A stretch of DNA of 64,000 bases from a virus. The translations under genes and the position numbers were made by a program. The DNA is taken from the IMG/VR virus record IMGVR_UViG_3300032304_002264, positions 38,628 to 102,627 of that record; one strand, given 5' to 3'. Shown here piece by piece: positions 37,580-57,508 of this stretch. The notes beneath the pieces were generated by a model that was not told the origin of the DNA, searched no databases, and saw only the letters and a program-made list of their open reading frames with translations. The first letter of the stretch is position 1; each line of letters opens with the position of its first letter.

Positions 37580-38713
37580 ATGGCAAAATTAACAGCATCC
37601 CAAGACGTATCCGAATTCTTAGCTTCAGCCAACAAGGTTGATGCTAGGGGCGTTCTTGGTGCTGTAGAAACAGAAGATTTGATTAGTATGACATTAGTTA
37701 CCGCTGCTAATGATACTGTTAAAGGCTACGTCGGGAATATCGGCGCTCTGGCTTTTTACAGTCAATCGACTTTAAAAGGATTGTCGTTAGGATCGAGTGT
37801 CACTTCGATTGGAATGTATGCGTTCCGATACAATACTGGTTTTACAGGCTCTTTAACTATTCCCAATTCAGTGACTACAATAGGAAGCTATGCGTTCGAT
37901 GGCTGCACTGGTTTCACGGGCTCTTTAACTATTGGCAATTCTGTCACTACGATTGGAAGCAGCGCGTTTTATGATTGCAATTTTACAGGAGCTTTAACGA
38001 TTCCCAATTCCGTTACTTCGATTGGAAGCGATGCGTTTCAATATTGTTCTAGTTTCACAGGCTCTTTAACGATTGGCAATTCTGTCACTACGATTGGAAG
38101 CGGCGCGTTTTACGGTTGCACTGGTTTCACTGGTTCTTTAACTATTGGCGATGCAGTGGTTTCGATTGGAAACGGCGCGTTTTACGGTTGCAATTTTACA
38201 GGTTCTTTAACTATTCCTAATTCGGTCACTTCAATTGAGACTTATGCGTTTTACGATTGCAGTGATTTTACAGGTTCTTTGACTATTCCCAATTCCGTTA
38301 CTTCAATAGCAAGCTATGCGTTCATCAATTGCACTGGTTTTAATGGATCTTTAACTATTGGCGATGCAGTGGTTTCGATTGGAAACGGCGCGTTCCAAAG
38401 CTGCAATGGTTTCATTGGTTCTTTAACTATTGGCAATTCGGTCACTTCGATTGGGGACAATGCTTTCCAATTCTGCTCTGGTTTAACGGGAACTTTAACC
38501 ATTGGCAACTCAATTGGCAGTATTGGCGATTATGCATTTAAAGACTGTTCTTCTATAACAGTAGTTAATATTTTAGCTACCTCTGCACCAACTATTGGAC
38601 CACAAGCATTCTATAATATGACTGCCGTTAGCCCAGCAGAAATTCATGTCCCTGTCGGAGCTACTGGATACGACGCAAGTTATAATGGACTAACCGTCGT
38701 TTACGACCTCTAA
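37580..38713 (+). CDS. BspA-type (LRR_5) leucine-rich repeat protein 1
   Basis: about 11 repeats of LTIxNSVTSIGxxAFxxCxGFTGS. Confidence 0.9.
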   Translation: MAKLTASQDVSEFLASANKVDARGVLGAVETEDLISMTLVTAANDTVKGYVGNIGALAFYSQSTLKGLSLGSSVTSIGMYAFRYNTGFTGSLTIPNSVTTIGSYAFDGCTGFTGSLTIGNSVTTIGSSAFYDCNFTGALTIPNSVTSIGSDAFQYCSSFTGSLTIGNSVTTIGSGAFYGCTGFTGSLTIGDAVVSIGNGAFYGCNFTGSLTIPNSVTSIETYAFYDCSDFTGSLTIPNSVTSIASYAFINCTGFNGSLTIGDAVVSIGNGAFQSCNGFIGSLTIGNSVTSIGDNAFQFCSGLTGTLTIGNSIGSIGDYAFKDCSSITVVNILATSAPTIGPQAFYNMTAVSPAEIHVPVGATGYDASYNGLTVVYDL

Positions 38714-48139: not shown

Positions 48140-49465
48140 ATGTCCGCTGAATACACTTTCAATAACCTTGGGCAGCTATCCCATACAGCGGCAAATATGC
48201 CTTGTATATATGATCGCGCAAACGATGTGTATAGACCTGTGGAGAAAAGCGATTTAAGTCTTGCTAATTCAGAAGGATCTACATCTTTTGATGCTTTTGG
48301 GCGTTTAAGAACTTCTTCTCCATTGACTTTGTTTGATTCTAGCCATAGATACGCTGATAACAATCTATGGTCAACAACAAGTGGAGTTAGTGGTAGTGGT
48401 TCATTTAATCAAAATCAAGGATTGATGGAACTAAACGCAACAAACGCTTCTGGTTCGTTCGTTACTAGAGAAACAACAAAAGTTTTTGCTTATCAACCTG
48501 GAAAAAGTTTACTTAACTTAAACACATTTGTAATGTCTCCAGCGAAAACTGGTCTTAGACAAAGAGTTGGTTATTTTGGTGCTGATAACGGAATATATTT
48601 GGAACTTGTAGATTCGACATTGAATTTTGTTGAACGCTCATTGGTTAATGGTAGTCCAGCAACAGAGATAAGAGTGCCGCAATCATCTTGGAGCGGAGAC
48701 AAACTAGATGGAACTGGTGCATCTGGATTTACTTTAGATATGACCAAAGCGCAGATTTTGTGGATGGACATAGAATGGTTAGGTCTTGGATCAGTAAGAA
48801 TGGGTTTTGTTATTAATGGCAAATTTGTTTTGTGTCATACGTTTCATCACGCCAACATCATCGACTCGACTTACATTACTACCGCTTCTTTGCCGCTTAG
48901 ATATGAAATAGCAAATACCGCCGCAACTTCTGGCGCTAGTAAGCTAAAACAAATATGCTCTTCTGTAATTTCAGAAGGTGGTTATGAATTGAGAGGCTCG
49001 CAACAAGCCATAGCTACTCCCATCAACTCCCCAAGAACTCTTGGAACTATTGGAGTAAAATACCCTGTTATAAGTATTCGTTTAAAATCCACTAAATTAG
49101 ATGCGATTGTTATTTTAACAGCACTATCTATAATGGGCGATACAGCAGGAAAGTTTAATTGGTCTTTAGTTGCTAGTGGTGTAACAACAGGTGGTACATG
49201 GCAATCTGCTGGAGGCTCTTCTGCGGTTGAATATAAACTTGATGGCGTTAGCTTTAGCGGTGGAAGAGCATTGGCTTCTGGTTTTTTTACCTCTACAAGC
49301 GCGGTATCAACTAACTTAGATATTTTGAAAGAAGCCTTGTTTAAATTCCAACTAGAAAGAAACGGTTTAACTGGAGAAGCTTACGAATTAACATTAGTTC
49401 TTGCATCAGACAGTTCCAACGACAGAGTTTTTGCTTCTATGGATTGGGAAGAGATCAGCAGATAA
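48140..49465 (+). CDS. phage protein, probably virion beta-rich
   Basis: DAFGRLR, YQPGK, WLGLG.VR.G, terminal WEE; GTGTAA upstream. Confidence 0.7.
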   Translation: MSAEYTFNNLGQLSHTAANMPCIYDRANDVYRPVEKSDLSLANSEGSTSFDAFGRLRTSSPLTLFDSSHRYADNNLWSTTSGVSGSGSFNQNQGLMELNATNASGSFVTRETTKVFAYQPGKSLLNLNTFVMSPAKTGLRQRVGYFGADNGIYLELVDSTLNFVERSLVNGSPATEIRVPQSSWSGDKLDGTGASGFTLDMTKAQILWMDIEWLGLGSVRMGFVINGKFVLCHTFHHANIIDSTYITTASLPLRYEIANTAATSGASKLKQICSSVISEGGYELRGSQQAIATPINSPRTLGTIGVKYPVISIRLKSTKLDAIVILTALSIMGDTAGKFNWSLVASGVTTGGTWQSAGGSSAVEYKLDGVSFSGGRALASGFFTSTSAVSTNLDILKEALFKFQLERNGLTGEAYELTLVLASDSSNDRVFASMDWEEISR

Positions 49466-49486
49466 ACAGAAAAATTCTTTGTGAAA

Positions 49487-49569
49487 TGGATCTGGAAGTG
49501 AGATTCGAACTCACGGTGTTGTATCCCATATTACAAGTATGGTGCTTTCGACCACTAAGCTACTCCAGA
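49487..49569 (-). tRNA. tRNA-Thr(UGU), 11-nt variable region
   Basis: ccata-CTTGTAA-tatgg; TTCGAAT; CCA. Confidence 0.85.
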
Positions 49570-49694
49570 ATTAAAAATTAAACACTAGACCTTTGTTATG
49601 TTTCTTAGCCGTTCTAGAAACGGCAACTAGCGTATTATTTTATTTGCTTTGGCGGGTAATTAGTCCATTACTGGCAGATAAATAATAAAAAAAA

Positions 49695-49785
49695 TGGCGG
49701 CTAGCATTGGGATTGAACCAAAAGGCTGTTTAGGCCTCCCTCAGTTTAGCAAACTGTGACCGTCACCAAGACGACATTACTAGCC
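49695..49785 (-). tRNA. tRNA-Ser(GCU)
   Basis: cagt-TTGCTAA-actg; long variable arm; G73; CCA. Confidence 0.85.
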
Positions 49786-49792
49786 ATGAAAA

Positions 49793-49867
49793 TGGATGCC
49801 CAACAGAGAGTCCCACTCTGATTTCTCCCATACCAAGGGAGCGTGTCTAGTTTTACACTTTTGGGCA
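49793..49867 (-). tRNA. tRNA-Thr(GGU), atypical T-loop
   Basis: ctccc-TTGGTAT-gggag; T-loop TGGGACT; CCA. Confidence 0.8.
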
Positions 49868-49876
49868 ATTGAAAAT

Positions 49877-49959
49877 TGGTAGCCGTAGAGAGACTTGAAC
49901 TCTCAATCCCGAAGGCGACAAGGCTTAAACTTGTAGTGTATGCATTCCACCATACGGCC
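49877..49959 (-). tRNA. tRNA-Leu(UAA)
   Basis: acaag-TTTAAGC-cttgt; variable arm; CCA. Confidence 0.88.
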
Positions 49960-49960
49960 A

Positions 49961-50752
49961 TTAAAGATTATAAAATTTCATCCACTTACGAATTGAATTA
50001 TCTGATACTTGGTATTTTCTACCAATAGCGCAAAAGTTACCATCCAACTCTTCGAAATCTTTTTCTAGTTGTTGTTTTGGAGGTCTTCTTGAAAAGAAAG
50101 ACGATTGATAAATTCGGGCGCACGATTTACATCTATCAGCAACCTTAGAAATCTCTTTTTTACAATCTATACATAAATTTGGTGGGGTAAGAGAGACTCC
50201 AACTCTCATGCTTTTTAAAGCGTCTGGTTCTAAGCCAGATGTGTATAGCGTTCCACCATTACCCCCAGAATTACCCCAAGTTTCTGTCTGTTGATGACAG
50301 TTGGGGCAAATTATTCTTAAATTTTCTAAACGGTTATCGTTTGGTTTTCCGTTAATGTGGTCAACATGAAGTCTGATAGGATTATTTAACCATTCGGTTA
50401 TTCCGCAAATAGCACAAGTATTTTTATAACCCATTTTTAAAAGTTTGGGGAGCAATCGACTATGTTGACTGTAAGGAGAATTTTCTTTGAAAATTTCTTC
50501 ATTAGAAAAGGAATTTTTAGCTACGTTAGCGGCTACTTTAGAACAAGATTCCGCCGTTTTCCCTTTAGCCCAATTCTGACCTAGAAAATGATCGGTTGGG
50601 ATTCTATATTCTAAAATCCGAAATTGAATTAGCCTAAAGTTTCCTCCAGTCATTTTCAACCCTAGTTTTTTAATAACCTCTGAGAATGATAGACTAGATT
50701 CTACTAGGGGAGTCAAAGACTCTTTTGTATGTTTTCTTTTTCTTTGTTTCAC
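49961..50752 (-). CDS. HNH endonuclease with C-terminal Zn finger and HTH
   Basis: CAICG..HVDHING..NDNRLENLRIICPNCH; CIDC..RCKSC; AIGRKYQVSDNSIRKW; likely GTG start. Confidence 0.85.
   Translation of the reverse strand: MKQRKRKHTKESLTPLVESSLSFSEVIKKLGLKMTGGNFRLIQFRILEYRIPTDHFLGQNWAKGKTAESCSKVAANVAKNSFSNEEIFKENSPYSQHSRLLPKLLKMGYKNTCAICGITEWLNNPIRLHVDHINGKPNDNRLENLRIICPNCHQQTETWGNSGGNGGTLYTSGLEPDALKSMRVGVSLTPPNLCIDCKKEISKVADRCKSCARIYQSSFFSRRPPKQQLEKDFEELDGNFCAIGRKYQVSDNSIRKWMKFYNL
50180..50265 (-). tRNA. tRNA-Leu(UAG), nested inside the HNH ORF
   Basis: ggggtaa/ttacccc acceptor; tctgg-CTTAGAA-ccaga; variable arm; ACCA. Confidence 0.85.
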
Positions 50753-50806
50753 ATAAATCTTTACAGATAAAGTGGTAAAGGGGAGAATTATACTTTGAAA
50801 TTTTGT

Positions 50807-50882
50807 TGGTGCGAATAGAAAGATTTGAACTTTCACTGTATTGGCTCTCGACCAATTATCTCTGCCGTTGGATTATATTCGC
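50807..50882 (-). tRNA. tRNA with GAG (Leu) anticodon, short variable loop, C33
   Basis: attgg-TCGAGAG-ccaat; CCA. Confidence 0.75.
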
Positions 50883-50890
50883 ATAAAAAA

Positions 50891-50965
50891 TGGCGGTTCA
50901 TAGGGGGAACGATCCCCTTCCTCAAGATTGACAATCTAGTGATGCTACCTTTACACTAATGAACC
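50891..50965 (-). tRNA. tRNA-Asp(GUC)
   Basis: loop TTGTCAA; G73; CCA. Confidence 0.82.
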
Positions 50966-50974
50966 ATAAAATAA

Positions 50975-51184
50975 CAGACGGCATAATCCGAAGACCGCTA
51001 ACACTTCACAGTCCTTTCGAACTCCATGCTTCGCGCCGTTATCGCTGCTGTTCCAGCGGGGATTTACCCACAGTGTTTTGCGGGAGTAACTCCGCTTCAA
51101 TCGTAGGTTCTATTTCCTCCTACTAGCCATTTACTAGATGGCATGGTTCTTAGTATCCCGCGAATCCAATATAATCGTCTTCGG
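50975..51184 (-). ncRNA. unidentified multi-helix structured RNA
   Basis: CCGAAGAC/GTCTTCGG closing helix and at least 5 internal hairpins. Confidence 0.5.
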
Positions 51185-51323
51185 GAACTTCTACAATATT
51201 AAAAGCTACTACAAATTTTCCATCAATGATACCTTTAACTTTGAAGCTGTATTCTTGATTGGCCGATTCAAGGCAATCATTTAAAAGATCAGTGAGAATT
51301 CCTATTTTTTCGTCTTCGTCCAT
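51150..51323 (-). CDS. small acidic protein (57 aa) within the tRNA array
   Basis: MDEDEKIGILTDLLNDCLE...IGFAGY*. Confidence 0.45.
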   Translation of the reverse strand: MDEDEKIGILTDLLNDCLESANQEYSFKVKGIIDGKFVVAFNIVEVPEDDYIGFAGY

Positions 51324-51340
51324 ATTTGTTATGTTAAAAT

Positions 51341-51417
51341 TGTGCGCCAGAGTTGGATTCGAACCAACACCCTATTTCCTTCACGGAAGTCTTGCTACCA
51401 TTACACTATCCGAACGC
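51341..51417 (-). ncRNA. tRNA-like element with aberrant anticodon arm and no CCA
   Basis: canonical D and T arms; ttcc-gtgaa-ggaa arm; bulged acceptor. Confidence 0.55.
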
Positions 51418-51426
51418 ATTGAAAAT

Positions 51427-51501
51427 TGGTAGGGGATCACAGAATCGAACTGTATTCTTAGGAATGTAAAACCTCTGCATCACACTTAATGCTTATCCCC
51501 C
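51427..51501 (-). tRNA. tRNA-Val(UAC)
   Basis: loop TTTACAT with weak stem; CCA. Confidence 0.75.
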
Positions 51502-51514
51502 GTTTGAAAATTAA

Positions 51515-51713
51515 TTAGTAAATGCTAGTCGCTACTCTAGCTAGAAATGAAGTGTGTCTCATCAATGGGATATTACCATTTGCTTGCCATGCACGGCTCT
51601 TCTCTTCGGTCAGTTGTATATTATACTCACAAGTTTTTTCTCGGTGCATCTCCTTACATGTTTTCTGCAACAACGATATTCCTGCGTGTCTGCTTTCCAC
51701 GCCGATTTACTAA
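51515..51713 (-). ncRNA. about 200-nt tRNA-like RNA with a greatly enlarged anticodon-position domain
   Basis: 9-bp terminal helix; D-like arm GCGTG-GAAAGCAGA-CACGC; T-like arm GCTAG-AGTAGCGA-CTAGC. Confidence 0.6.
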
Positions 51714-51716
51714 AAC

Positions 51717-51790
51717 TGGACACACCTATGGGTAACTCTCCCATTTAGCTAGTTTTGCAGACTAGAGCCTCAATTTTCGGCCAAGGTGTG
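51717..51790 (-). tRNA. tRNA-Cys(GCA), atypical T-loop
   Basis: ctagt-CTGCAAA-actag; U73; CCA. Confidence 0.85.
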
Positions 51791-51797
51791 ATGAAAT

Positions 51798-51871
51798 TGG
51801 TGGAAATACAGAAACTCGAATTCTGACTAAAAGAGTGCAAATCTTTTGTGCTACCATTACACTATATCCCC
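51798..51871 (-). tRNA. tRNA-Ala(UGC)
   Basis: G3:U70; aaaga-TTTGCAC-tcttt; CCA. Confidence 0.9.
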
Positions 51872-51879
51872 ATTGAAAT

Positions 51880-51955
51880 TGGTAGTCCGTCCCCGTATTG
51901 ATCGGGGTATCTCCCGTTTATCGAACGGGTGCAGTTACCAGCTTGCTCACGGACT
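51880..51955 (-). tRNA. tRNA-Ile(GAU), C33
   Basis: cccgt-TCGATAA-acggg; CCA. Confidence 0.82.
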
Positions 51956-51965
51956 ATTTGAAAAT

Positions 51966-52088
51966 TGGAGCGGCGGCGGATCGTCACTTCCGCCTTGCTA
52001 GGGACTCCGAAATACCCCGTGATCTCCTTCTTCTAGGACATTCCGAGATTTAATGTCTTTTAATTCGGGTTTCTTTTGACTATGCCGC
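51966..52088 (-). ncRNA. expanded tRNA-like RNA with Gly-type acceptor and CCA
   Basis: GCGGC/GCCGC-TCCA acceptor; T-like arm; no canonical anticodon loop. Confidence 0.55.
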
Positions 52089-52097
52089 ATTGTAAAT

Positions 52098-52177
52098 TGG
52101 TGAGCCAGAGAGGAGTCAAACCTCCATGCATTCAATTATCCTTTCAACTCGTTCGTAGCGAGAGGGAATACTGACCC
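52098..52177 (-). tRNA. D-armless tRNA-Arg(ACG)-like RNA
   Basis: ctcg-CTACGAA-cgag; 8-nt D replacement; 22-nt variable region; CCA. Confidence 0.65.
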
Positions 52178-52190
52178 ATGTTATAAAATT

Positions 52191-52266
52191 TGGTGGGGGC
52201 GACGGGAATCCAACCCGCTATCAACCGTTTATGAGACGGTGGCATCTGGCATACTGCTCCACCCCG
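52191..52266 (-). tRNA. tRNA(CAU), Met or Ile2
   Basis: accgt-CTCATAA-acggt; CCA. Confidence 0.8.
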
Positions 52267-52280
52267 ATTAAATACTCAAA

Positions 52281-52355
52281 GTCCGCGAGGTCAGGGTTGA
52301 ACTGACATTATACTCTTTCACAAAGAGGACTTTTACCATTAAAGTTACCCACGGA
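52281..52355 (-). tRNA. tRNA-His(GUG), 8-bp acceptor, CCA not encoded
   Basis: ctct-TTGTGAA-agag. Confidence 0.75.
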
Positions 52356-52365
52356 TGAAAATAAA

Positions 52366-52518
52366 TCCCCACTACCGAGATTCACAGAGGTAAGATATCT
52401 CTAAGAGCGACCAAAGCCTTACTTACTTGTGTCGGATTACGAATACAGACATTGACGGAGCAACCGTGTATTCCTGTATCACGCTCATATTAGTTCTTTT
52501 GGTCTAATATGGCGGGGA
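52366..52518 (-). ncRNA. unidentified structured RNA
   Basis: TCCCCGC/GTGGGGA closing helix; CATATTAG/CTAATATG hairpin. Confidence 0.5.
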
Positions 52519-52522
52519 AAAT

Positions 52523-52606
52523 TGGTGCAGATGGCGAGATTTGAACTCGCGTGTGGTATTCCTCATTGGAAGTGAGGCGCAATCGACCAAGCTATGCGAC
52601 ATCTGC
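52523..52606 (-). tRNA. tRNA-Gly(UCC), 10-nt variable region
   Basis: cctca-CTTCCAA-tgagg; CCA. Confidence 0.85.
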
Positions 52607-52616
52607 TTTAAAATAG

Positions 52617-52728
52617 TTTGATTAGTTGGATTCCTTACTCATGGATAGAAGACTCACAAATGAAGTGGCAATGCATTGCGTTCATAGGTTCCAACGTGGA
52701 TGATACACGCCTTACGGTCTAATCAAAA
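52617..52728 (-). ncRNA. unidentified structured RNA
   Basis: TTTGATTAG/CTAATCAAA 9-bp closing helix with internal stems. Confidence 0.5.
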
Positions 52729-52729
52729 A

Positions 52730-52804
52730 TGGCCCCAACTAGAGGTATCGAGCCTCTCTTTCGAATTTTTCAGATTCGCGCTAATCCGTCTCAGCTAAGT
52801 TGGG
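52730..52804 (-). tRNA. tRNA-Phe(GAA)
   Basis: cgaat-CTGAAAA-attcg; CCA; 5' end overlaps the HNH stop region. Confidence 0.85.
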
Positions 52805-53365
52805 ATGATGAAATGTTCCATGACAATTAGGACAAAGATATTCTAAATTGTCTATTGTGTTATTTGTGGGGTCTTCGTCTTTATGGTGGATATGCAATAA
52901 AATTAAATTCCCCATCCAGTGTGACAAGCCACAACATTGACAACGATATTCTCTACCAGCACGATCTAAAGCTGCTTTCAACGCTGGCCTTCTTAATCTT
53001 TTCTTTTGTTCAACTGACTTAGCAAACAATTTGTTAGCTGTGGCTTGCCCTCCTAACGAACGGCTGTTTTCTTTGCCGTCTTTAAAAAAGACTCCCAATT
53101 GATTTAATCTTTTTTTATAGTGAAAAAATGAACCTCCAGATGTTTTTAATCCGAGATTTCTCAAACACTCATTCATATAAGAGCTTTTAGCTGCCGCTTC
53201 TAATAATTGTTGATCGGAAATTTTATGTTTGCATCTTCCAAAAGTTTTTAGCTTAAATTTCCGCAGCCAATAACGAGTTGTGCCAATAGGCATATTTAAG
53301 GCTTCTGCAATTTCTTTAATTGTTTTCCCTTCGGAAATATATTGTTGGAGTATTTTTTGTTCCAT
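52781..53365 (-). CDS. HTH fused to HNH endonuclease
   Basis: TIKEIAEAL HTH; CQCCG..HIHHKD..NN..DNLEYLCPNCH; GTGTAA 8 nt upstream. Confidence 0.85.
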   Translation of the reverse strand: MEQKILQQYISEGKTIKEIAEALNMPIGTTRYWLRKFKLKTFGRCKHKISDQQLLEAAAKSSYMNECLRNLGLKTSGGSFFHYKKRLNQLGVFFKDGKENSRSLGGQATANKLFAKSVEQKKRLRRPALKAALDRAGREYRCQCCGLSHWMGNLILLHIHHKDEDPTNNTIDNLEYLCPNCHGTFHHPNLAETD

Positions 53366-53446
53366 ACCCCTTTTTACACGAAAAGAGTAAAGCGGGGAAC
53401 AATATGCAAGCGCAATGTCTCCAGACCTGCCCACAAGCGTAAAAAT

Positions 53447-53523
53447 TGGTGACTCATGTAGGATTCAAACCTACAACCTAGACGGTAGAAACATCTTGCT
53501 CTATTCGATTGAGCTAATGAGCC
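53447..53523 (-). tRNA. tRNA-Arg(UCU)
   Basis: agatg-TTTCTAC-cgtct; CCA. Confidence 0.87.
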
Positions 53524-53531
53524 TTTGAAAA

Positions 53532-53606
53532 TGGCTGGCCATTTAGGATTCGAACCTAACTAAATCTCCTTAACAGGGAGGTGTCGCGCCTAGCGACCTA
53601 TGGCCA
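53532..53606 (-). tRNA. tRNA-Asn(GUU)
   Basis: ctcc-CTGTTAA-ggag; G73; CCA. Confidence 0.87.
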
Positions 53607-53614
53607 TTTGAAAA

Positions 53615-53689
53615 TGGTCAGGGTTTGGGGTAACGATCCCCATTCTACTCGTTAAAAGCAAGTTGCTTCACCATTAAAGCTTAACCCCG
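53615..53689 (-). tRNA. tRNA-Lys(UUU)
   Basis: acttg-CTTTTAA-cgagt; CCA. Confidence 0.85.
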
Positions 53690-53698
53690 TTTGAAAAT

Positions 53699-53769
53699 TG
53701 GATACCTTTGGGGATTCTAGCCCCTCTTCTACGCCCATGCGTAGTATGCTGTCATTACATCATCAGGTA
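53699..53769 (-). ncRNA. tRNA-like element with shortened anticodon loop
   Basis: D and T arms and CCA present; ctacgc-ATGG-gcgtag arm. Confidence 0.55.
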
Positions 53770-53772
53770 AGA

Positions 53773-53851
53773 TGGCCCACACAGGTCGGAATTGAACCGA
53801 CTATTTAACTGGATTTGGAGTTCAGTTGCAACCGCCACTTGCTGCTGCGGG
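53773..53851 (-). tRNA. tRNA-Trp(CCA), bulged acceptor
   Basis: loop CTCCAAA; CCA end. Confidence 0.75.
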
Positions 53852-53859
53852 ATGAAAAT

Positions 53860-53933
53860 TGGAAGCCCCGCCCAGAATCGAACTGGATTAAGTATGTTCA
53901 AAGCATACGGCCTTACCAATAGGCTACGGGGCA
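53860..53933 (-). tRNA. tRNA-Gln(UUG)
   Basis: gtatg-CTTTGAA-catac; CCA. Confidence 0.87.
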
Positions 53934-53940
53934 ATTAAAA

Positions 53941-54032
53941 TGGCGGAAGATAAAAGGATCGAACTCTCACCCGTGGATCACACGCATGGCACAGTTTTCG
54001 AGACTGCTTGACCTCCATTGGTCGCTACCTCC
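53941..54032 (-). tRNA. tRNA-Ser(CGA)
   Basis: gcagt-CTCGAAA-actgt; long variable arm; G73; CCA. Confidence 0.87.
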
Positions 54033-54046
54033 CATATAAAGAAAAA

Positions 54047-54240
54047 CAAATCAAAAGTGCGTTGTTACACCAAAGGGGTTACTATTTCTAGTCCTATGAA
54101 ACGTAATTCACAATCATCGCAGCACCTTTTGCAAGGGTGTATGTCTTCTTGGAATTATATACATACGAATTACCTCTTCTCTACGTCTAGTCCCATTCTT
54201 TAAAAGGTGGCTACTTCTAAGCCTACTTCCTTTTGATCTG
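54047..54240 (-). ncRNA. mimic of the 23S rRNA GTPase-associated centre (H43/H44, L11 site) with an insert of about 125 nt
   Basis: GGAAGUAGGCUUAGAAGUAGCCACCUUUUAAAGA ... GUGUAACAACGCACU inside an 11-bp closing helix. Confidence 0.8.
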
Positions 54241-54244
54241 AAAA

Positions 54245-54327
54245 TGGTGTGAGTCTGAGGTTTCGATCCTCGCCCCGAAGGAGAAGTTTTACAGACTTCT
54301 TGCTAGAGCCACTAGCTTTAGACTCAC
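54245..54327 (-). tRNA. tRNA-Tyr(GUA), apparent 8/4 acceptor/T-stem
   Basis: gaagt-CTGTAAA-acttc; GTGAGTCT/AGACTCAC acceptor; CCA. Confidence 0.8.
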
Positions 54328-54341
54328 ATAAAAAAGAAAGA

Positions 54342-54420
54342 GACGCGCTGTTTTACCTGACTAAACTACAATGCAGTATTATCTCCGCACCAGCGGACTT
54401 CGAACCCGCCTCTTCGCATC
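54342..54420 (-). ncRNA. circularly permuted tRNA mimic (YrlA-like), copy B
   Basis: order T arm, looped acceptor, D arm; closed by GATGCG/CGCGTC. Confidence 0.65.
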
Positions 54421-54430
54421 AAAATAAATA

Positions 54431-54498
54431 GGGGTATTCTGCCACTGAACTACCCAGAGATTGGAGCCTCTGAGACGGAATCGAACCGATGCCTCCCC
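54431..54498 (-). ncRNA. circularly permuted tRNA mimic (YrlA-like), copy A
   Basis: GGTTCGATTCC, CTCAGAG-loop-CTCTGGG, TAGTTCAGTGGCAGAA; closed by GGGG/CCCC. Confidence 0.7.
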
Positions 54499-54511
54499 AA
54501 CATTTGTAAAA

Positions 54512-54567
54512 TGGTCGCTCCCCGTCATCGACTCATAAAATCGACTTCGCTGGCCAGCAGGGGAGCG
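54512..54567 (-). ncRNA. 56-nt mini-RNA with 8-bp acceptor-like stem and ACCA end
   Basis: CGCTCCCC/GGGGAGCG-ACCA enclosing two small hairpins. Confidence 0.55.
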
Positions 54568-54593
54568 TTTGTTTTTTATGCTGGCATTAGAAA

Positions 54594-54670
54594 TGGTAGG
54601 AACGGAGAGGGTCGAACTCTCACTGATACAAGGAATGAGCTTGTGCAACACCAATATTGCTTGCGTTCCA
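54594..54670 (-). tRNA. tRNA(CAU) with U1:U72 mismatch and U37
   Basis: acaag-CTCATTC-cttgt; CCA. Confidence 0.75.
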
Positions 54671-54677
54671 ATTGAAA

Positions 54678-54702
54678 TGGTTGCGGACTAAAGACTCGAA
54701 TC
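54678..54702 (-). pseudogene. orphan tRNA 3' end (T-loop to CGCAACCA)
   Basis: GATTCGAGTCTTTAGTCCGCAACCA abutting the promoter of the endonuclease gene. Confidence 0.65.
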
Positions 54703-54717
54703 AGTGTAAAAGTATTT

Positions 54718-55677
54718 ATGCAATACAATAAAGACCAATACGAGACAAAAAAGCACCGCGAAATGATAGACTGCATCTGTGACGAATGTGGTTCTGAGTG
54801 TCAGAGACGAAAGAGAGATATTAGAATATCAATTGGCCGAAATCAGGAAAAGCTTTTTTGCTCAAAAGAATGTTCTGCCAAACACTCGCGATCCGAAGAG
54901 AGAAATAACCACTCAGGCGAATGCAAAAACTGTGGAAAAGAAGTAACCTACCCAAACTTGTTTTGTTCGTCTTCTTGTTCTGCTATCTATACCAACCAAT
55001 TTAAATTGAAAAGGGGCAAAATAGTGTCGTGTCATGGATGCGGAGAAGATTGCTATAAGGAACCAAATCAGCTACGAGATAATATTAGTGGGTTACACTT
55101 TTGCAGTCGTGATTGCAGCGACAAATTTAAGGTAAACAAAGCGGCTCGTCAAAATAGAGATATCACATGTTCTCAATGTTTATCTGATTTCCAAAGATAT
55201 TCGACCCAAAAGAGTAAGCACGGCAAAGAGTTTTGTTCTCGTTCTTGTAGAATGAAATATTTCAATATACATCACAAGATTAATGAAGGTTCGGGAGCCA
55301 GCGTTAGTTATCCAGAAGAATATTTGAATGACCGACTGGCCACTTCGTTTCAAGACTTAGAAATTTCCAGAAATAATAGAACCTTTCTTGAATGTGGTTA
55401 TGAAATGGATTTTTTCTTTCCTAATCTTAACTTCGCTATCGAAGTGAACGGCCCAATTCATTATATGCCTATTTTCGGAGAGACTCGTTTGGATAATGTC
55501 CAAGCTAAGGACTTAACAAAATATGCTGAAATGAATCACAAGGGCATCTCTTTTCTTATAATCGACGTAAGACAAAGTATGAGTAAAAAGAAAATGGCAA
55601 TGTATTTGGACGGACTTTTTGTTGATAAAATCCAACCTATTATAGAAAGCAAATTGCGCCGCCTAGATTCGAACTAG
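54718..55677 (+). CDS. multi-Zn-finger, Vsr/DUF559-like endonuclease, antisense in the array
   Basis: four CxxC...FCSxxC units; EMDFFF..FAIEVNGPIHY...KD. Confidence 0.8.
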   Translation: MQYNKDQYETKKHREMIDCICDECGSECQRRKRDIRISIGRNQEKLFCSKECSAKHSRSEERNNHSGECKNCGKEVTYPNLFCSSSCSAIYTNQFKLKRGKIVSCHGCGEDCYKEPNQLRDNISGLHFCSRDCSDKFKVNKAARQNRDITCSQCLSDFQRYSTQKSKHGKEFCSRSCRMKYFNIHHKINEGSGASVSYPEEYLNDRLATSFQDLEISRNNRTFLECGYEMDFFFPNLNFAIEVNGPIHYMPIFGETRLDNVQAKDLTKYAEMNHKGISFLIIDVRQSMSKKKMAMYLDGLFVDKIQPIIESKLRRLDSN

Positions 55678-55739
55678 GAACAGGATTTAACCTTTCTCCA
55701 ACTTATGAGGATGGCATGTTACCATTACACTACGGCACG
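55654..55739 (-). tRNA. initiator-like tRNA(CAU), C1:A72, long variable arm, no CCA
   Basis: ccatc-CTCATAA-gttgg; TTCGAAT; overlaps the endonuclease 3' end. Confidence 0.7.
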
Positions 55740-55752
55740 ATTTGAAAATGAA

Positions 55753-55907
55753 TCAGCTATACCCTTTGACCGAGGGGGCGTATTGTTGTCTCAAAGTTTG
55801 GTATATCCATCCCAAACCGCATGGCGGCTCCTTAAATAACTTCTTCCTCCTCTTGGATAGAATGAGGAAATAGATGGAGAAGTTACGACAACATTAACTC
55901 TAGCTGA
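55753..55907 (-). ncRNA. unidentified structured RNA
   Basis: nested helices TCAGCTA/TAGCTGA, TGTTGTC/GACAACA, TAACTTCT/AGAAGTTA. Confidence 0.55.
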
Positions 55908-55911
55908 AAAT

Positions 55912-56021
55912 TGATCCCCAACCATCCACCTTCTCAGTTGGTAGGAATTTGGCCGCTTGCGGCGACCTTACCTATTTGAACGCCTAATCGTCATTAGACT
56001 GGGTGGTTCTGACTGTTGGGA
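55912..56021 (-). ncRNA. unidentified structured RNA
   Basis: CCCAAC/GTTGGG closing helix; GGTCGC-cgcaa-GCGGCC hairpin. Confidence 0.5.
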
Positions 56022-56025
56022 AAAT

Positions 56026-56102
56026 TGGTTAGGCATGTGGAATTTGAATCCACAATCTCTACATCCCAAATGTAGCGCGATACCAAGTTACGCTAATGCC
56101 TA
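56026..56102 (-). tRNA. tRNA-Pro(UGG)
   Basis: ctaca-TTTGGGA-tgtag; CCA. Confidence 0.88.
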
Positions 56103-56110
56103 ATTGAAAT

Positions 56111-56185
56111 TGGTCATGCATACGGGGGACGATCCCGTAGTCTCTTGAGTGAAAGTCAAGCGTGTTACCATTACACTAATGCATG
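56111..56185 (-). tRNA. tRNA-Glu(UUC)
   Basis: cttga-CTTTCAC-tcaag; CCA. Confidence 0.87.
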
Positions 56186-56281
56186 TTTGAAAATTTATCC
56201 GCTGACCAACCCAACCCGAATCCTGAGACTCAAGGGCAAAGTTAGCCTTCTGGCGAGCGGAATGTCGCCAAAGAATTTTTC

Positions 56282-56296
56282 TGTTTATCAAAGATC
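56282..56296 (-). promoter_or_regulatory. boxA-like antitermination element
   Basis: GATCTTTGATAAACA in the leader of the RNA array. Confidence 0.5.
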
Positions 56297-56366
56297 GAAA
56301 ACCCAAACCAAGCTCACTTTGGAGTTGGCCATCTTGCAGAGCATTGCTGCGCTGGTCGATGTGGGT

Positions 56367-56394
56367 AGTATGTAGTATTTTTGGAATTTGTCAA
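56367..56394 (-). promoter_or_regulatory. sigma70-type promoter of the tRNA array
   Basis: TTGACA-N16-CATACT. Confidence 0.65.
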
Positions 56395-56424
56395 CCTGTT
56401 TTTTGATAAATCTTTTCGGGCTAA

Positions 56425-56483: not shown

Positions 56484-56546
56484 CTACACCCCGCCCTCGC
56501 AATTCTGCGTGGATTTCGGGCTGAGTGATGTAATAAAATATCGCAT
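56484..56546 (-). CDS. putative leader peptide MRYFITSLSPKSTQNCEGGV
   Basis: GTGTAA 12 nt upstream; stop codon 3 nt before the antiterminator arm. Confidence 0.65.
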   Translation of the reverse strand: MRYFITSLSPKSTQNCEGGV

Positions 56547-56576: not shown

Positions 56577-57152
56577 TTAAAAAACATTTTTCAAGAAATT
56601 GTTCCATTCAGGACGAATAACTGGAGCGTTCAACATTAACGCTGGAATCGGTGTCGGCTTGGGAACTTGCCCGTTTTTGTCATACCAAGGTGTTATATTG
56701 CTTTTTTCACGATTACATTTGATACAACAAAGCGCAAAATTTTCGTGTTCATTTTTTCCTCCTAAACTTTTCGGGTAAATATGGTCAATACTTAACTGTT
56801 TCAAAGGAAATTTCTCAAAACAATACTGGCAAGTGTATTCGCACAGCTTGGCAAGATCAAACAAAGTGAGCTTTTTCTTTTTCGGCTTTCTAAAGAATTT
56901 ACTGTTTACAACAATCACAGTAGGAATCGGCCATCCAGCGTGTGCGCTTCTTAGGAACGGCTGATCGTCATAATACGCTGCCAAACTGTTCCAAGTGTCG
57001 AGAGAATGAAAGACATTGCTATCCTTATCCAACGCTGAAATTCGACGCTTGTGCAAGTGGCTGAATGCTGCCCGTGCGGTGACAACTGTAATTGGTTGCC
57101 ATGCATTGTTTAAAAGCAAGGTCGTTTTAGTGTTTGCGGTTACTGCGTTCAT
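56577..57152 (-). CDS. HNH endonuclease (McrA-like)
   Basis: LLLNNAWQP, CQYC, SIDHIYPKSLGG, CCIKCNREK. Confidence 0.88.
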   Translation of the reverse strand: MNAVTANTKTTLLLNNAWQPITVVTARAAFSHLHKRRISALDKDSNVFHSLDTWNSLAAYYDDQPFLRSAHAGWPIPTVIVVNSKFFRKPKKKKLTLFDLAKLCEYTCQYCFEKFPLKQLSIDHIYPKSLGGKNEHENFALCCIKCNREKSNITPWYDKNGQVPKPTPIPALMLNAPVIRPEWNNFLKNVF

Positions 57153-57508
57153 TTTTCTACTTTTATTTTCATGAATAAAGGGTATCTCCTAATCTTCTGC
57201 ATCGCAACAGCTCTGCTTGAACAAAAAACATCAACAACAATAGCATCTGGACGGCCAAGTTTCTTTGCGGCGGTTCTTGCCACAACGCTCGGACCAGTAT
57301 CAGCAGCCTTAAAAGACTTGCCCATCTGAGGTATTACAACTTTCGAGCCATACGGAATAATCTTAGGATCAACCGCAATTGTTTTGCCGCAAATTGGTTT
57401 CGCGCCAGTAGAGGTGATAGTATCTCCCCAATAGTATGTTACTCTCGCTATCATTTCGCGAGCTTGGATGGGGGCTAGTAGGAGAAGTGTTAATAGTATT
57501 GCTTTCAT
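57149..57508 (-). CDS. secreted 3D-domain (MltA-like) protein
   Basis: signal peptide; TIAVDPKIIPYGS, ADTG, VDVF. Confidence 0.85.
   Translation of the reverse strand: MKAILLTLLLLAPIQAREMIARVTYYWGDTITSTGAKPICGKTIAVDPKIIPYGSKVVIPQMGKSFKAADTGPSVVARTAAKKLGRPDAIVVDVFCSSRAVAMQKIRRYPLFMKIKVEK

Follow-up and report, generated by a model that had tools for sequence, protein, structure and literature searches.

A conserved four-way-junction RNA among the cassettes of a lake-phage tRNA array

What occupies the gaps of a phage tRNA array in which neither a tRNA gene nor an open reading frame (ORF) can be recognized? The question is raised by a 64,000-nucleotide stretch of viral DNA (IMG/VR record IMGVR_UViG_3300032304_002264, positions 38,628 to 102,627; hereafter the window), which comes from an uncultured freshwater (lake) tailed phage and carries a 7-kb tRNA array on its minus strand. 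A first-pass annotation had proposed that nearly every longer ORF-free gap of this array is closed by a terminal helix, and that the gaps encode a library of decoy or mimic RNAs excised together with the tRNAs; seven such gaps were listed, which we call E1 to E7. The array does carry a real non-tRNA structured RNA, the covarying family represented by E3, but this does not extend to all seven listed segments. The tally is one well-supported new RNA family, three plausible but unproven units (E4, E5 and E6) and three segments that are not end-paired RNAs (E1, E2 and E7). The features on which the main result depends are the following.

49487..56185, minus strand: tRNA array, the cassettes of which are split by NCCA + AUUUUCA(A) spacers
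52363..52520, minus strand: E3, conserved four-way-junction RNA, with covariation and synteny
52523..52606, minus strand: tRNA-Gly(UCC), the 5' neighbour of E3, kept in 8 of 9 family members

Relatives of E3 first appeared as partial blastn hits to three related arrays. Two more contigs came from an exact-pattern scan, and a covariance model built from four sequences was then used to find diverged members. The family consists of 10 distinct sequences of 155-192 nucleotides (nt) in related lake-phage arrays; the E3 pattern had no match in 185,579 prokaryote genomes. In the 10-sequence alignment, which was fitted to the covariance model, 94.4% of the pair cells are standard pairs vs 74% in shuffles, and changes on both sides are seen at 27 of the 46 pairs. 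None of 500 shuffles matched the alignment in any measure, and when the partners were slid by 1-3 columns, pairing fell to 28-43%. RNAalifold, run on an independent MAFFT alignment, returned the same structure; 17 of its pairs were compensatory among four sequences. E3 defines a genuine family of structured RNAs, which is under selection.

The structure starts with a terminal helix of 7-8 bp (P1), on which a 7-bp hairpin (P2) is directly stacked. These are followed by a long hairpin (P3), capped in most members by a 7-nt apical loop, and by a long arm of variable length (P4), which is closed by the invariant CCGA/UCGG and after which UAGUG returns into P1. Judged by its sequence, the apical loop of P3 looks like an anticodon loop. 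Nine members have a 7-nt loop, always with U at position 2; the central triplet is AAC or CAC in two of them and AGC, UGC or GGC in the other seven. G.U pairs are invariant in 10 of 10 and 9 of 10 sequences, which identifies the array strand as the RNA strand. The 5' neighbour is known for nine members, and in eight of these E3 starts 3-6 nt past tRNA-Gly(UCC); the linkage holds in arrays with or without encoded CCA. The possibility that E3 is an rRNA, Y RNA or tRNA mimic received no support from the Rfam and E. coli rRNA searches, and the E3 profile found nothing in E. coli rRNA.

The seven segments are listed below under the bounds drawn in the first-pass annotation, to which the values for E2 and E7 refer. 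Terminal helices were compared with those of 1000 dinucleotide shuffles, and the probability of the closing helix was also calculated after adding 100-nt flanks at both ends (context probability).

E1, 49582-49687: helix p 0.48, folding z -0.98
E2, 50975-51184: helix p 0.13 (core 0.085), context probability 0.0, folding z -2.15
E3, 52366-52518: helix p 0.019, context probability 0.84, folding z -2.7
E4, 52617-52728: helix p 0.001, context probability 0.88, folding z -0.44
E5, 55753-55907: helix p 0.016, context probability 0.23, folding z -2.5
E6, 55912-56021: helix p 0.007, context probability 0.68, folding z -2.2
E7, 56198-56261: helix p 0.09, context probability 0.002, folding z -2.65 (-2.95 for 56198-56275)

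The terminal helix was thus significant in E3, E4, E5 and E6, but not in E1, E2 and E7. Folding energies gave a different division: E2, E3, E5, E6 and E7 folded better than shuffles (z -2.15 to -2.95), whereas E1 and E4 did not. In E7 and E2 the "closing helices" result from the choice of boundaries and vanish once the flanks are added.

An Rfam scan (E<=5, permissive filters) matched no family to any of E1-E7, in agreement with the initial statement that they were not assignable to known families. This includes the models of transfer-messenger RNA (tmRNA), YrlA and Y RNA, which share the pairing of 5' and 3' termini, as well as those of 6S RNA, RNase P and the signal recognition particle (SRP), all with zero matches on the seven elements. 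Neither the tRNA model (RF00005) at E<=5 nor ARAGORN detected a tRNA signal in any of them, and comparison with E. coli 16S, 23S and 5S rRNA yielded nothing beyond chance, with best E values of 0.09-0.15. The comparisons to rRNA, tmRNA, SRP, RNase P and 6S suggested in the first-pass annotation were therefore negative for all seven, and the terms "decoy" and "mimic" find no support in these elements, which have no Rfam match and no significant E. coli rRNA match (E at least 0.09); the rRNA-like sequence of the array is a separate unit at 54047-54240, described below. Searches with blastn and nhmmer against 368 loci (~4 Mb) found no homologue of E1, E2 or E4-E7. A "library" of seven RNAs is not supported, as E1, E2 and E7 fail end-pairing and E4-E6 have no homologues in these loci.

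It could be argued that the end-pairing operates at the level of DNA, as terminal inverted repeats of mobile cassettes or as recombination sites, and is not RNA structure at all. Cassettes are gained and lost precisely, E1 (49573-49689) for example being gone in one variant, and the folding energies of E4 and E5 are alike on both strands. We nevertheless regard this explanation as highly improbable: the internal helices of E3 covary, its conserved G.U pairs would be A.C on the opposite strand, the array strand folds better than the other (z -2.2 vs -1.2 for E6, z -2.95 vs -1.15 for E7), and no cassette has repeated copies in the window.

The cassettes are delimited by a common grammar. The tRNAs of the array encode CCA, which is followed by AUUUUCA(A). 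The motif ATTTTCA has 28 minus-strand sites in the window, 15 of them inside the array, where the plus strand has one, and AUUUUCA-type spacers are, as had been noticed at the outset, common to tRNAs and non-tRNA units. The latter end in the terminal helix, 3-4 nt in the position of NCCA (UCA in E6, UUC in E5, UUU in E3) and the spacer. The closest related array, L001, has the same CCAAUUU(U)CAA spacers, sigma-70-like promoter matches and end-paired non-tRNA units of its own. We scanned, without selection, 44 tRNA-tRNA gaps of 60-260 nt in 10 arrays of the same spacer grammar, and found terminal pairing with p<0.05 in 11 of the 44, compared with about 2 expected. End-paired units are over-represented, yet they make up a minority of the gaps; the excess is real, but it falls well short of nearly every ORF-free gap being closed by a helix.

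Apart from E3, the helix-closed units are E4, E5 and E6.

52615..52729, minus strand: E4, closed by the 9-bp terminal helix UUUGAUUAG/CUAAUCAAA, then AUUUUAA
55750..55908, minus strand: E5, closed by UCAGCUA/UAGCUGA (7-bp terminal helix) and followed by UUC + AUUUUCA; in context this helix is weak
55757..55822, minus strand: mini-ORF of E5, 21 codons, UAAGGAG 5 nt 5' of the AUG at 55822
55912..56022, minus strand: E6, terminal helix of 8 bp that stacks on one of 5 bp, two hairpins, then UCA + AUUUUCA

A single-sequence covariance model of E6, run against 54 array loci and the window, found E6 itself only, and an exact-pattern scan of IMG/VR with an E6 anchor gave three chance matches in coding sequence. 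Contigs assembled from metagenome reads left E4 uncovered; E5 and E6 were covered by nothing but low-depth contigs, apparently of the same strain. E5 and E6 lie, together with an antisense Zn-finger ORF and tRNA-Met, within a block of ~1.33 kb (54687-56016), which is missing or replaced in a high-depth variant array from another lake.

These units, and E1 and E2 with them, might be non-functional debris, i.e. decayed tRNA genes or scars of cassette exchange driven by endonucleases, in which the helices would be relics of acceptor stems. The terminal helices of 7-9 bp with 3-4 nt at the tRNA NCCA position would be expected of such relics, degenerate tRNA-likes are abundant in the array, and no homologues of the units were found, E5 and E6 lying in a block that a variant array lacks or replaces. 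We consider this possible but on balance unlikely, since no residual tRNA signal was detected by the Rfam tRNA model (E<=5) or ARAGORN, the units measure 110-160 nt and lack a T-arm motif, and E3, which follows the same grammar, is clearly under structural selection. E4 and E6 are probably lineage-specific units that follow the same cassette grammar as E3, although they are unproven.

E5 may be something else, a small unit that is translated or regulatory. The last codons and the stop codon of its mini-ORF form the 3' strands of the two outer helices of E5, and one can imagine that E5 and E7, instead of being free RNAs, act in cis as regulatory leaders or mini-ORF devices, translation of the E5 ORF remodelling the helices and affecting the downstream tRNA-Met. 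The Shine-Dalgarno-like UAAGGAG ahead of the AUG, a 20-codon leader ORF with a terminator (56484-56546) upstream of the array and the location of E7 in the leader after a promoter-like site would all suit such a role. However, mini-ORFs with a Shine-Dalgarno sequence and ATG are not enriched in the array gaps (27 sense, 27 antisense, 45 in shuffles), so the mini-ORF of E5 is only a possibility; moreover, no terminator follows E5 and there is no E5 homologue in which conservation of the ORF could show. We find the cis-regulatory explanation distinctly unlikely.

The remaining three segments, and the leader of the array, are best described separately.

49573..49689, minus strand: E1, AT-rich 117-nt cassette without structure signal
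50966..51126, minus strand: E2 core, conserved in other arrays, not end-paired, z = -2.4
56198..56275, minus strand: E7, two leader hairpins that follow a promoter-like site and precede the first tRNA (Glu), not end-closed in context
56367..56394, minus strand: match to a sigma-70-like promoter, TTGACA-16-CATACT, ahead of leader and array

E1 recurs in one other metagenome contig, and another lacks exactly this segment; it is an unstructured indel. E2 is a conserved cassette that was wrongly bounded: the 5' arm assigned to it falls within the end of a 57-amino acid ORF, and three other lake metagenomes share only 50925-51126 of this region and skip the ORF. Exact-pattern scans of IMG/VR with E2 and E7 anchors gave no match. 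E7 is a leader structure. Three other lake metagenomes contain the module 56193-56400, which includes E7, at 94-97% identity, and there different units follow downstream of it. A comparable promoter-like site precedes the L001 array. The 20-codon ORF at 56484-56546 (minus strand) is rich in different amino acids and lies 3' of a strong promoter match (56594-56567); it is followed by a terminator-like hairpin and U-run, upstream of the second promoter-like site of the array. This ORF and the mini-ORF of E5 both start with M-R-(Y/F).

One point in favour of the claim that all seven segments, and others besides, form a jointly regulated library of decoys or mimics that titrate host factors is a neighbouring cassette, which indicates that mimicry occurs in this array. 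In the 5' part of the element at 54047-54240 (minus strand) 31 of 36 positions are identical to E. coli 23S rRNA 1054-1089, the hairpin of the L11/GTPase-associated centre (E=1e-7), and the element is conserved in other phage arrays. Because of this match mimicry stays possible for the array overall, and the many aberrant tRNA-likes of the array would also be compatible with decoys. For the seven segments themselves the library is very unlikely: E1-E7 are without Rfam match or above-chance match to E. coli rRNA, E1, E2 and E7 are not end-paired, and E4-E6 are conserved in nothing that was searched. The 54047-54240 element (~180 nt) has ~74% identity to copies in five phage contigs (L051, L040, L055, L044 and L031); the one copy checked, in L051, lies upstream of tmRNA. 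At L001 2855-3125 the outer shell of the element is kept and the insert is larger.

The explanation that we favour, and as a whole judge to be probable, is that the array is a mosaic operon of exchangeable cassettes, in which at least E3 is a genuine structured RNA. Each cassette is a tRNA, a degenerate tRNA-like or a non-tRNA RNA, followed by an A/U-rich spacer, with homing-endonuclease genes interspersed among them. E3 would be co-transcribed with the tRNAs, its 5' end arising by 3' maturation of tRNA-Gly (by RNase Z, or by RNase E and exonucleases) and its 3' end by the RNase P cut of the next tRNA. The terminal helix would then block 3' exonucleases, and E3 could accumulate as a small stable RNA, like RNAC and RNAD of phage T4. 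As non-tRNA units share the spacers of the tRNAs, and as RNAC and RNAD provide a precedent, co-transcription and excision by flanking tRNA processing, which the first-pass annotation had already put forward, seem plausible and a reasonable inference. Our best guess is that E3 binds a host or phage protein tied to translation or tRNA metabolism.

Several observations weigh against the mosaic-operon explanation. The interior of E4 folds no better than shuffles, and as E4, E5 and E6 have no homologues in the 368 loci, selection on them is not demonstrated. In the E3 junction there are 0 unpaired nt between P1 and the 5' hairpin, unlike the acceptor/T-arm stacking recognized by RNase P, thus release of E3 would depend wholly on the neighbouring tRNAs. 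There was no RNA run among the sequencing runs that match the array DNA of the window, and any function of E3 is pure inference.

A bolder version would see the tRNA arrays of lake phages as expression platforms for unrelated structured RNAs (E3, the look-alike of the rRNA GTPase centre and the oversized tRNA-likes), released by tRNA processing and each binding a factor of host translation or of anti-phage defence, with E3 as a partner or decoy in tRNA-Gly(UCC) biology. We mention it tentatively, and think it rather unlikely.

The closest precedent for E3 is the pair RNAC (species 1, 139 nt) and RNAD (species 2, 119 nt) of phage T4, which are likewise non-tRNA RNAs inside a phage tRNA cluster; rnaC and rnaD are annotated in the T4 genome as small stable RNAs in the tRNA cluster beside segB. 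They presumably arise by cleavage of the flanking tRNAs, the terminal helix guarding the 3' end. Like the elements of the array, they are on the tRNA strand, a few nt from tRNAs and with a homing endonuclease nearby (segB in T4), and the Gly-Pro-Ser tRNA order of T4 recurs in E3-bearing arrays. E3 is not homologous to the T4 RNAs: its covariance model scored 12.4 bits on T4, out of register and across the rnaC/rnaD boundary. RNAC has a canonical T arm, whereas E3 has none and is a four-way junction tied to tRNA-Gly(UCC). Northern blots have revealed the T4 RNAs (PMC9697503), to which no function has yet been assigned (PMC3014915, PMC9697503).

Phage tRNA clusters are known to carry non-tRNA passenger RNAs, a feature that is still unexplained, and the E3 family is new. 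It represents a second, unrelated and selected family in the niche of RNAC and RNAD, with ten diverged members and a fixed tRNA partner, and shows that such passengers recur in phage tRNA clusters. To our knowledge, the T4 RNAs stood almost alone and have lacked an assigned function for about fifty years; the conserved loops, the invariant CCGA/UCGG-UAGUG core and the linkage to tRNA-Gly(UCC) now offer a comparative handle on passenger function.

The arrangement also appears to resemble tRNA punctuation as known from mitochondria and from bacterial operons (RNase P, Z and E), where units likewise lie flush between tRNAs with short A/U-rich spacers, so that their ends would be set as the tRNAs are processed. 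In contrast to the punctuation model, some units of the array are non-tRNA, with terminal helices of acceptor length and a pseudo-CCA tail. A published long phage tRNA array is similar in having homing endonucleases and pseudo-tRNAs and in being mosaic and mobile; in the passages searched, that account describes only tRNAs and three pseudogenes and mentions no conserved non-tRNA structured RNA.

Mosaicism is directly visible in metagenomes. When 49480-56400 was compared with four lake runs, single cassettes were 90-97% identical but differently joined, the joints of the variants being at or near spacers (e.g. 49572>49690, 51126>51422 and 54686>56017). Cassettes are exchanged piecemeal between lake phages, perhaps driven by endonucleases; what is swapped are spacer-delimited cassettes, whether tRNA or not.

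Other cassettes of the array also have relatives elsewhere. The non-tRNA unit at 51513-51720 (minus strand) has homologues at L329 415-624 (E=2e-15) and L355 5261-5390 (E=8e-12), and in three lake metagenomes. At 51961-52106 (minus strand) there is a CCA-ended tRNA-like of ~125 nt with an oversized body, 92% identical to L001 3872-4017; the window array and the L001 array have little else in common beyond this unit. A short ACCA-ended unit with an acceptor-like stem and two small hairpins is found at 54505-54580 (minus strand) and at L001 6953-7010 (minus strand), with weak sequence similarity between the two (nhmmer E=0.17).

The window encodes tail protein L, tail-tip domains, a DnaB-like helicase, a family-A DNA polymerase and a ClpB-like ATPase, and the virion protein at 48140-49465 has 60-90% identity to proteins of lake-metagenome viral contigs and ~66% to proteins of T4-like cyanophages. 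Parts of the array recur in DNA runs, and those runs are freshwater or lake metagenomes. Searches with the neighbouring genes at 57149-57508 and 54718-55677 found distant relatives only. No tmRNA gene was detected in the array of the window; related arrays carry one, with full tmRNA genes at L005 1058-1434, L014 7897-8273 and L051 17418-17833 (ARAGORN; Rfam 122 bits).

ARAGORN predicted 20 tRNAs within the minus-strand array, and the Rfam tRNA model added 51430-51501 and a class-II tRNA at 49699-49785. By eye we noted further CCA-ended candidate tRNA-likes on the minus strand, at approximately 54246-54335, 53942-54040, 51727-51797, 51880-51958 and 49794-49869, whose anticodon loops would read GUA (Tyr), CGA (Ser), GCA (Cys), GAU (Ile) and GGU (Thr); several of them have odd D or T arms, and the coordinates are approximate. 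HNH and Zn-finger endonuclease-like ORFs are scattered through the array, and one of them, the HNH ORF at 49961-50836 (minus strand), runs through the intact tRNA-Leu(UAG) gene at 50180-50265 on the same strand.

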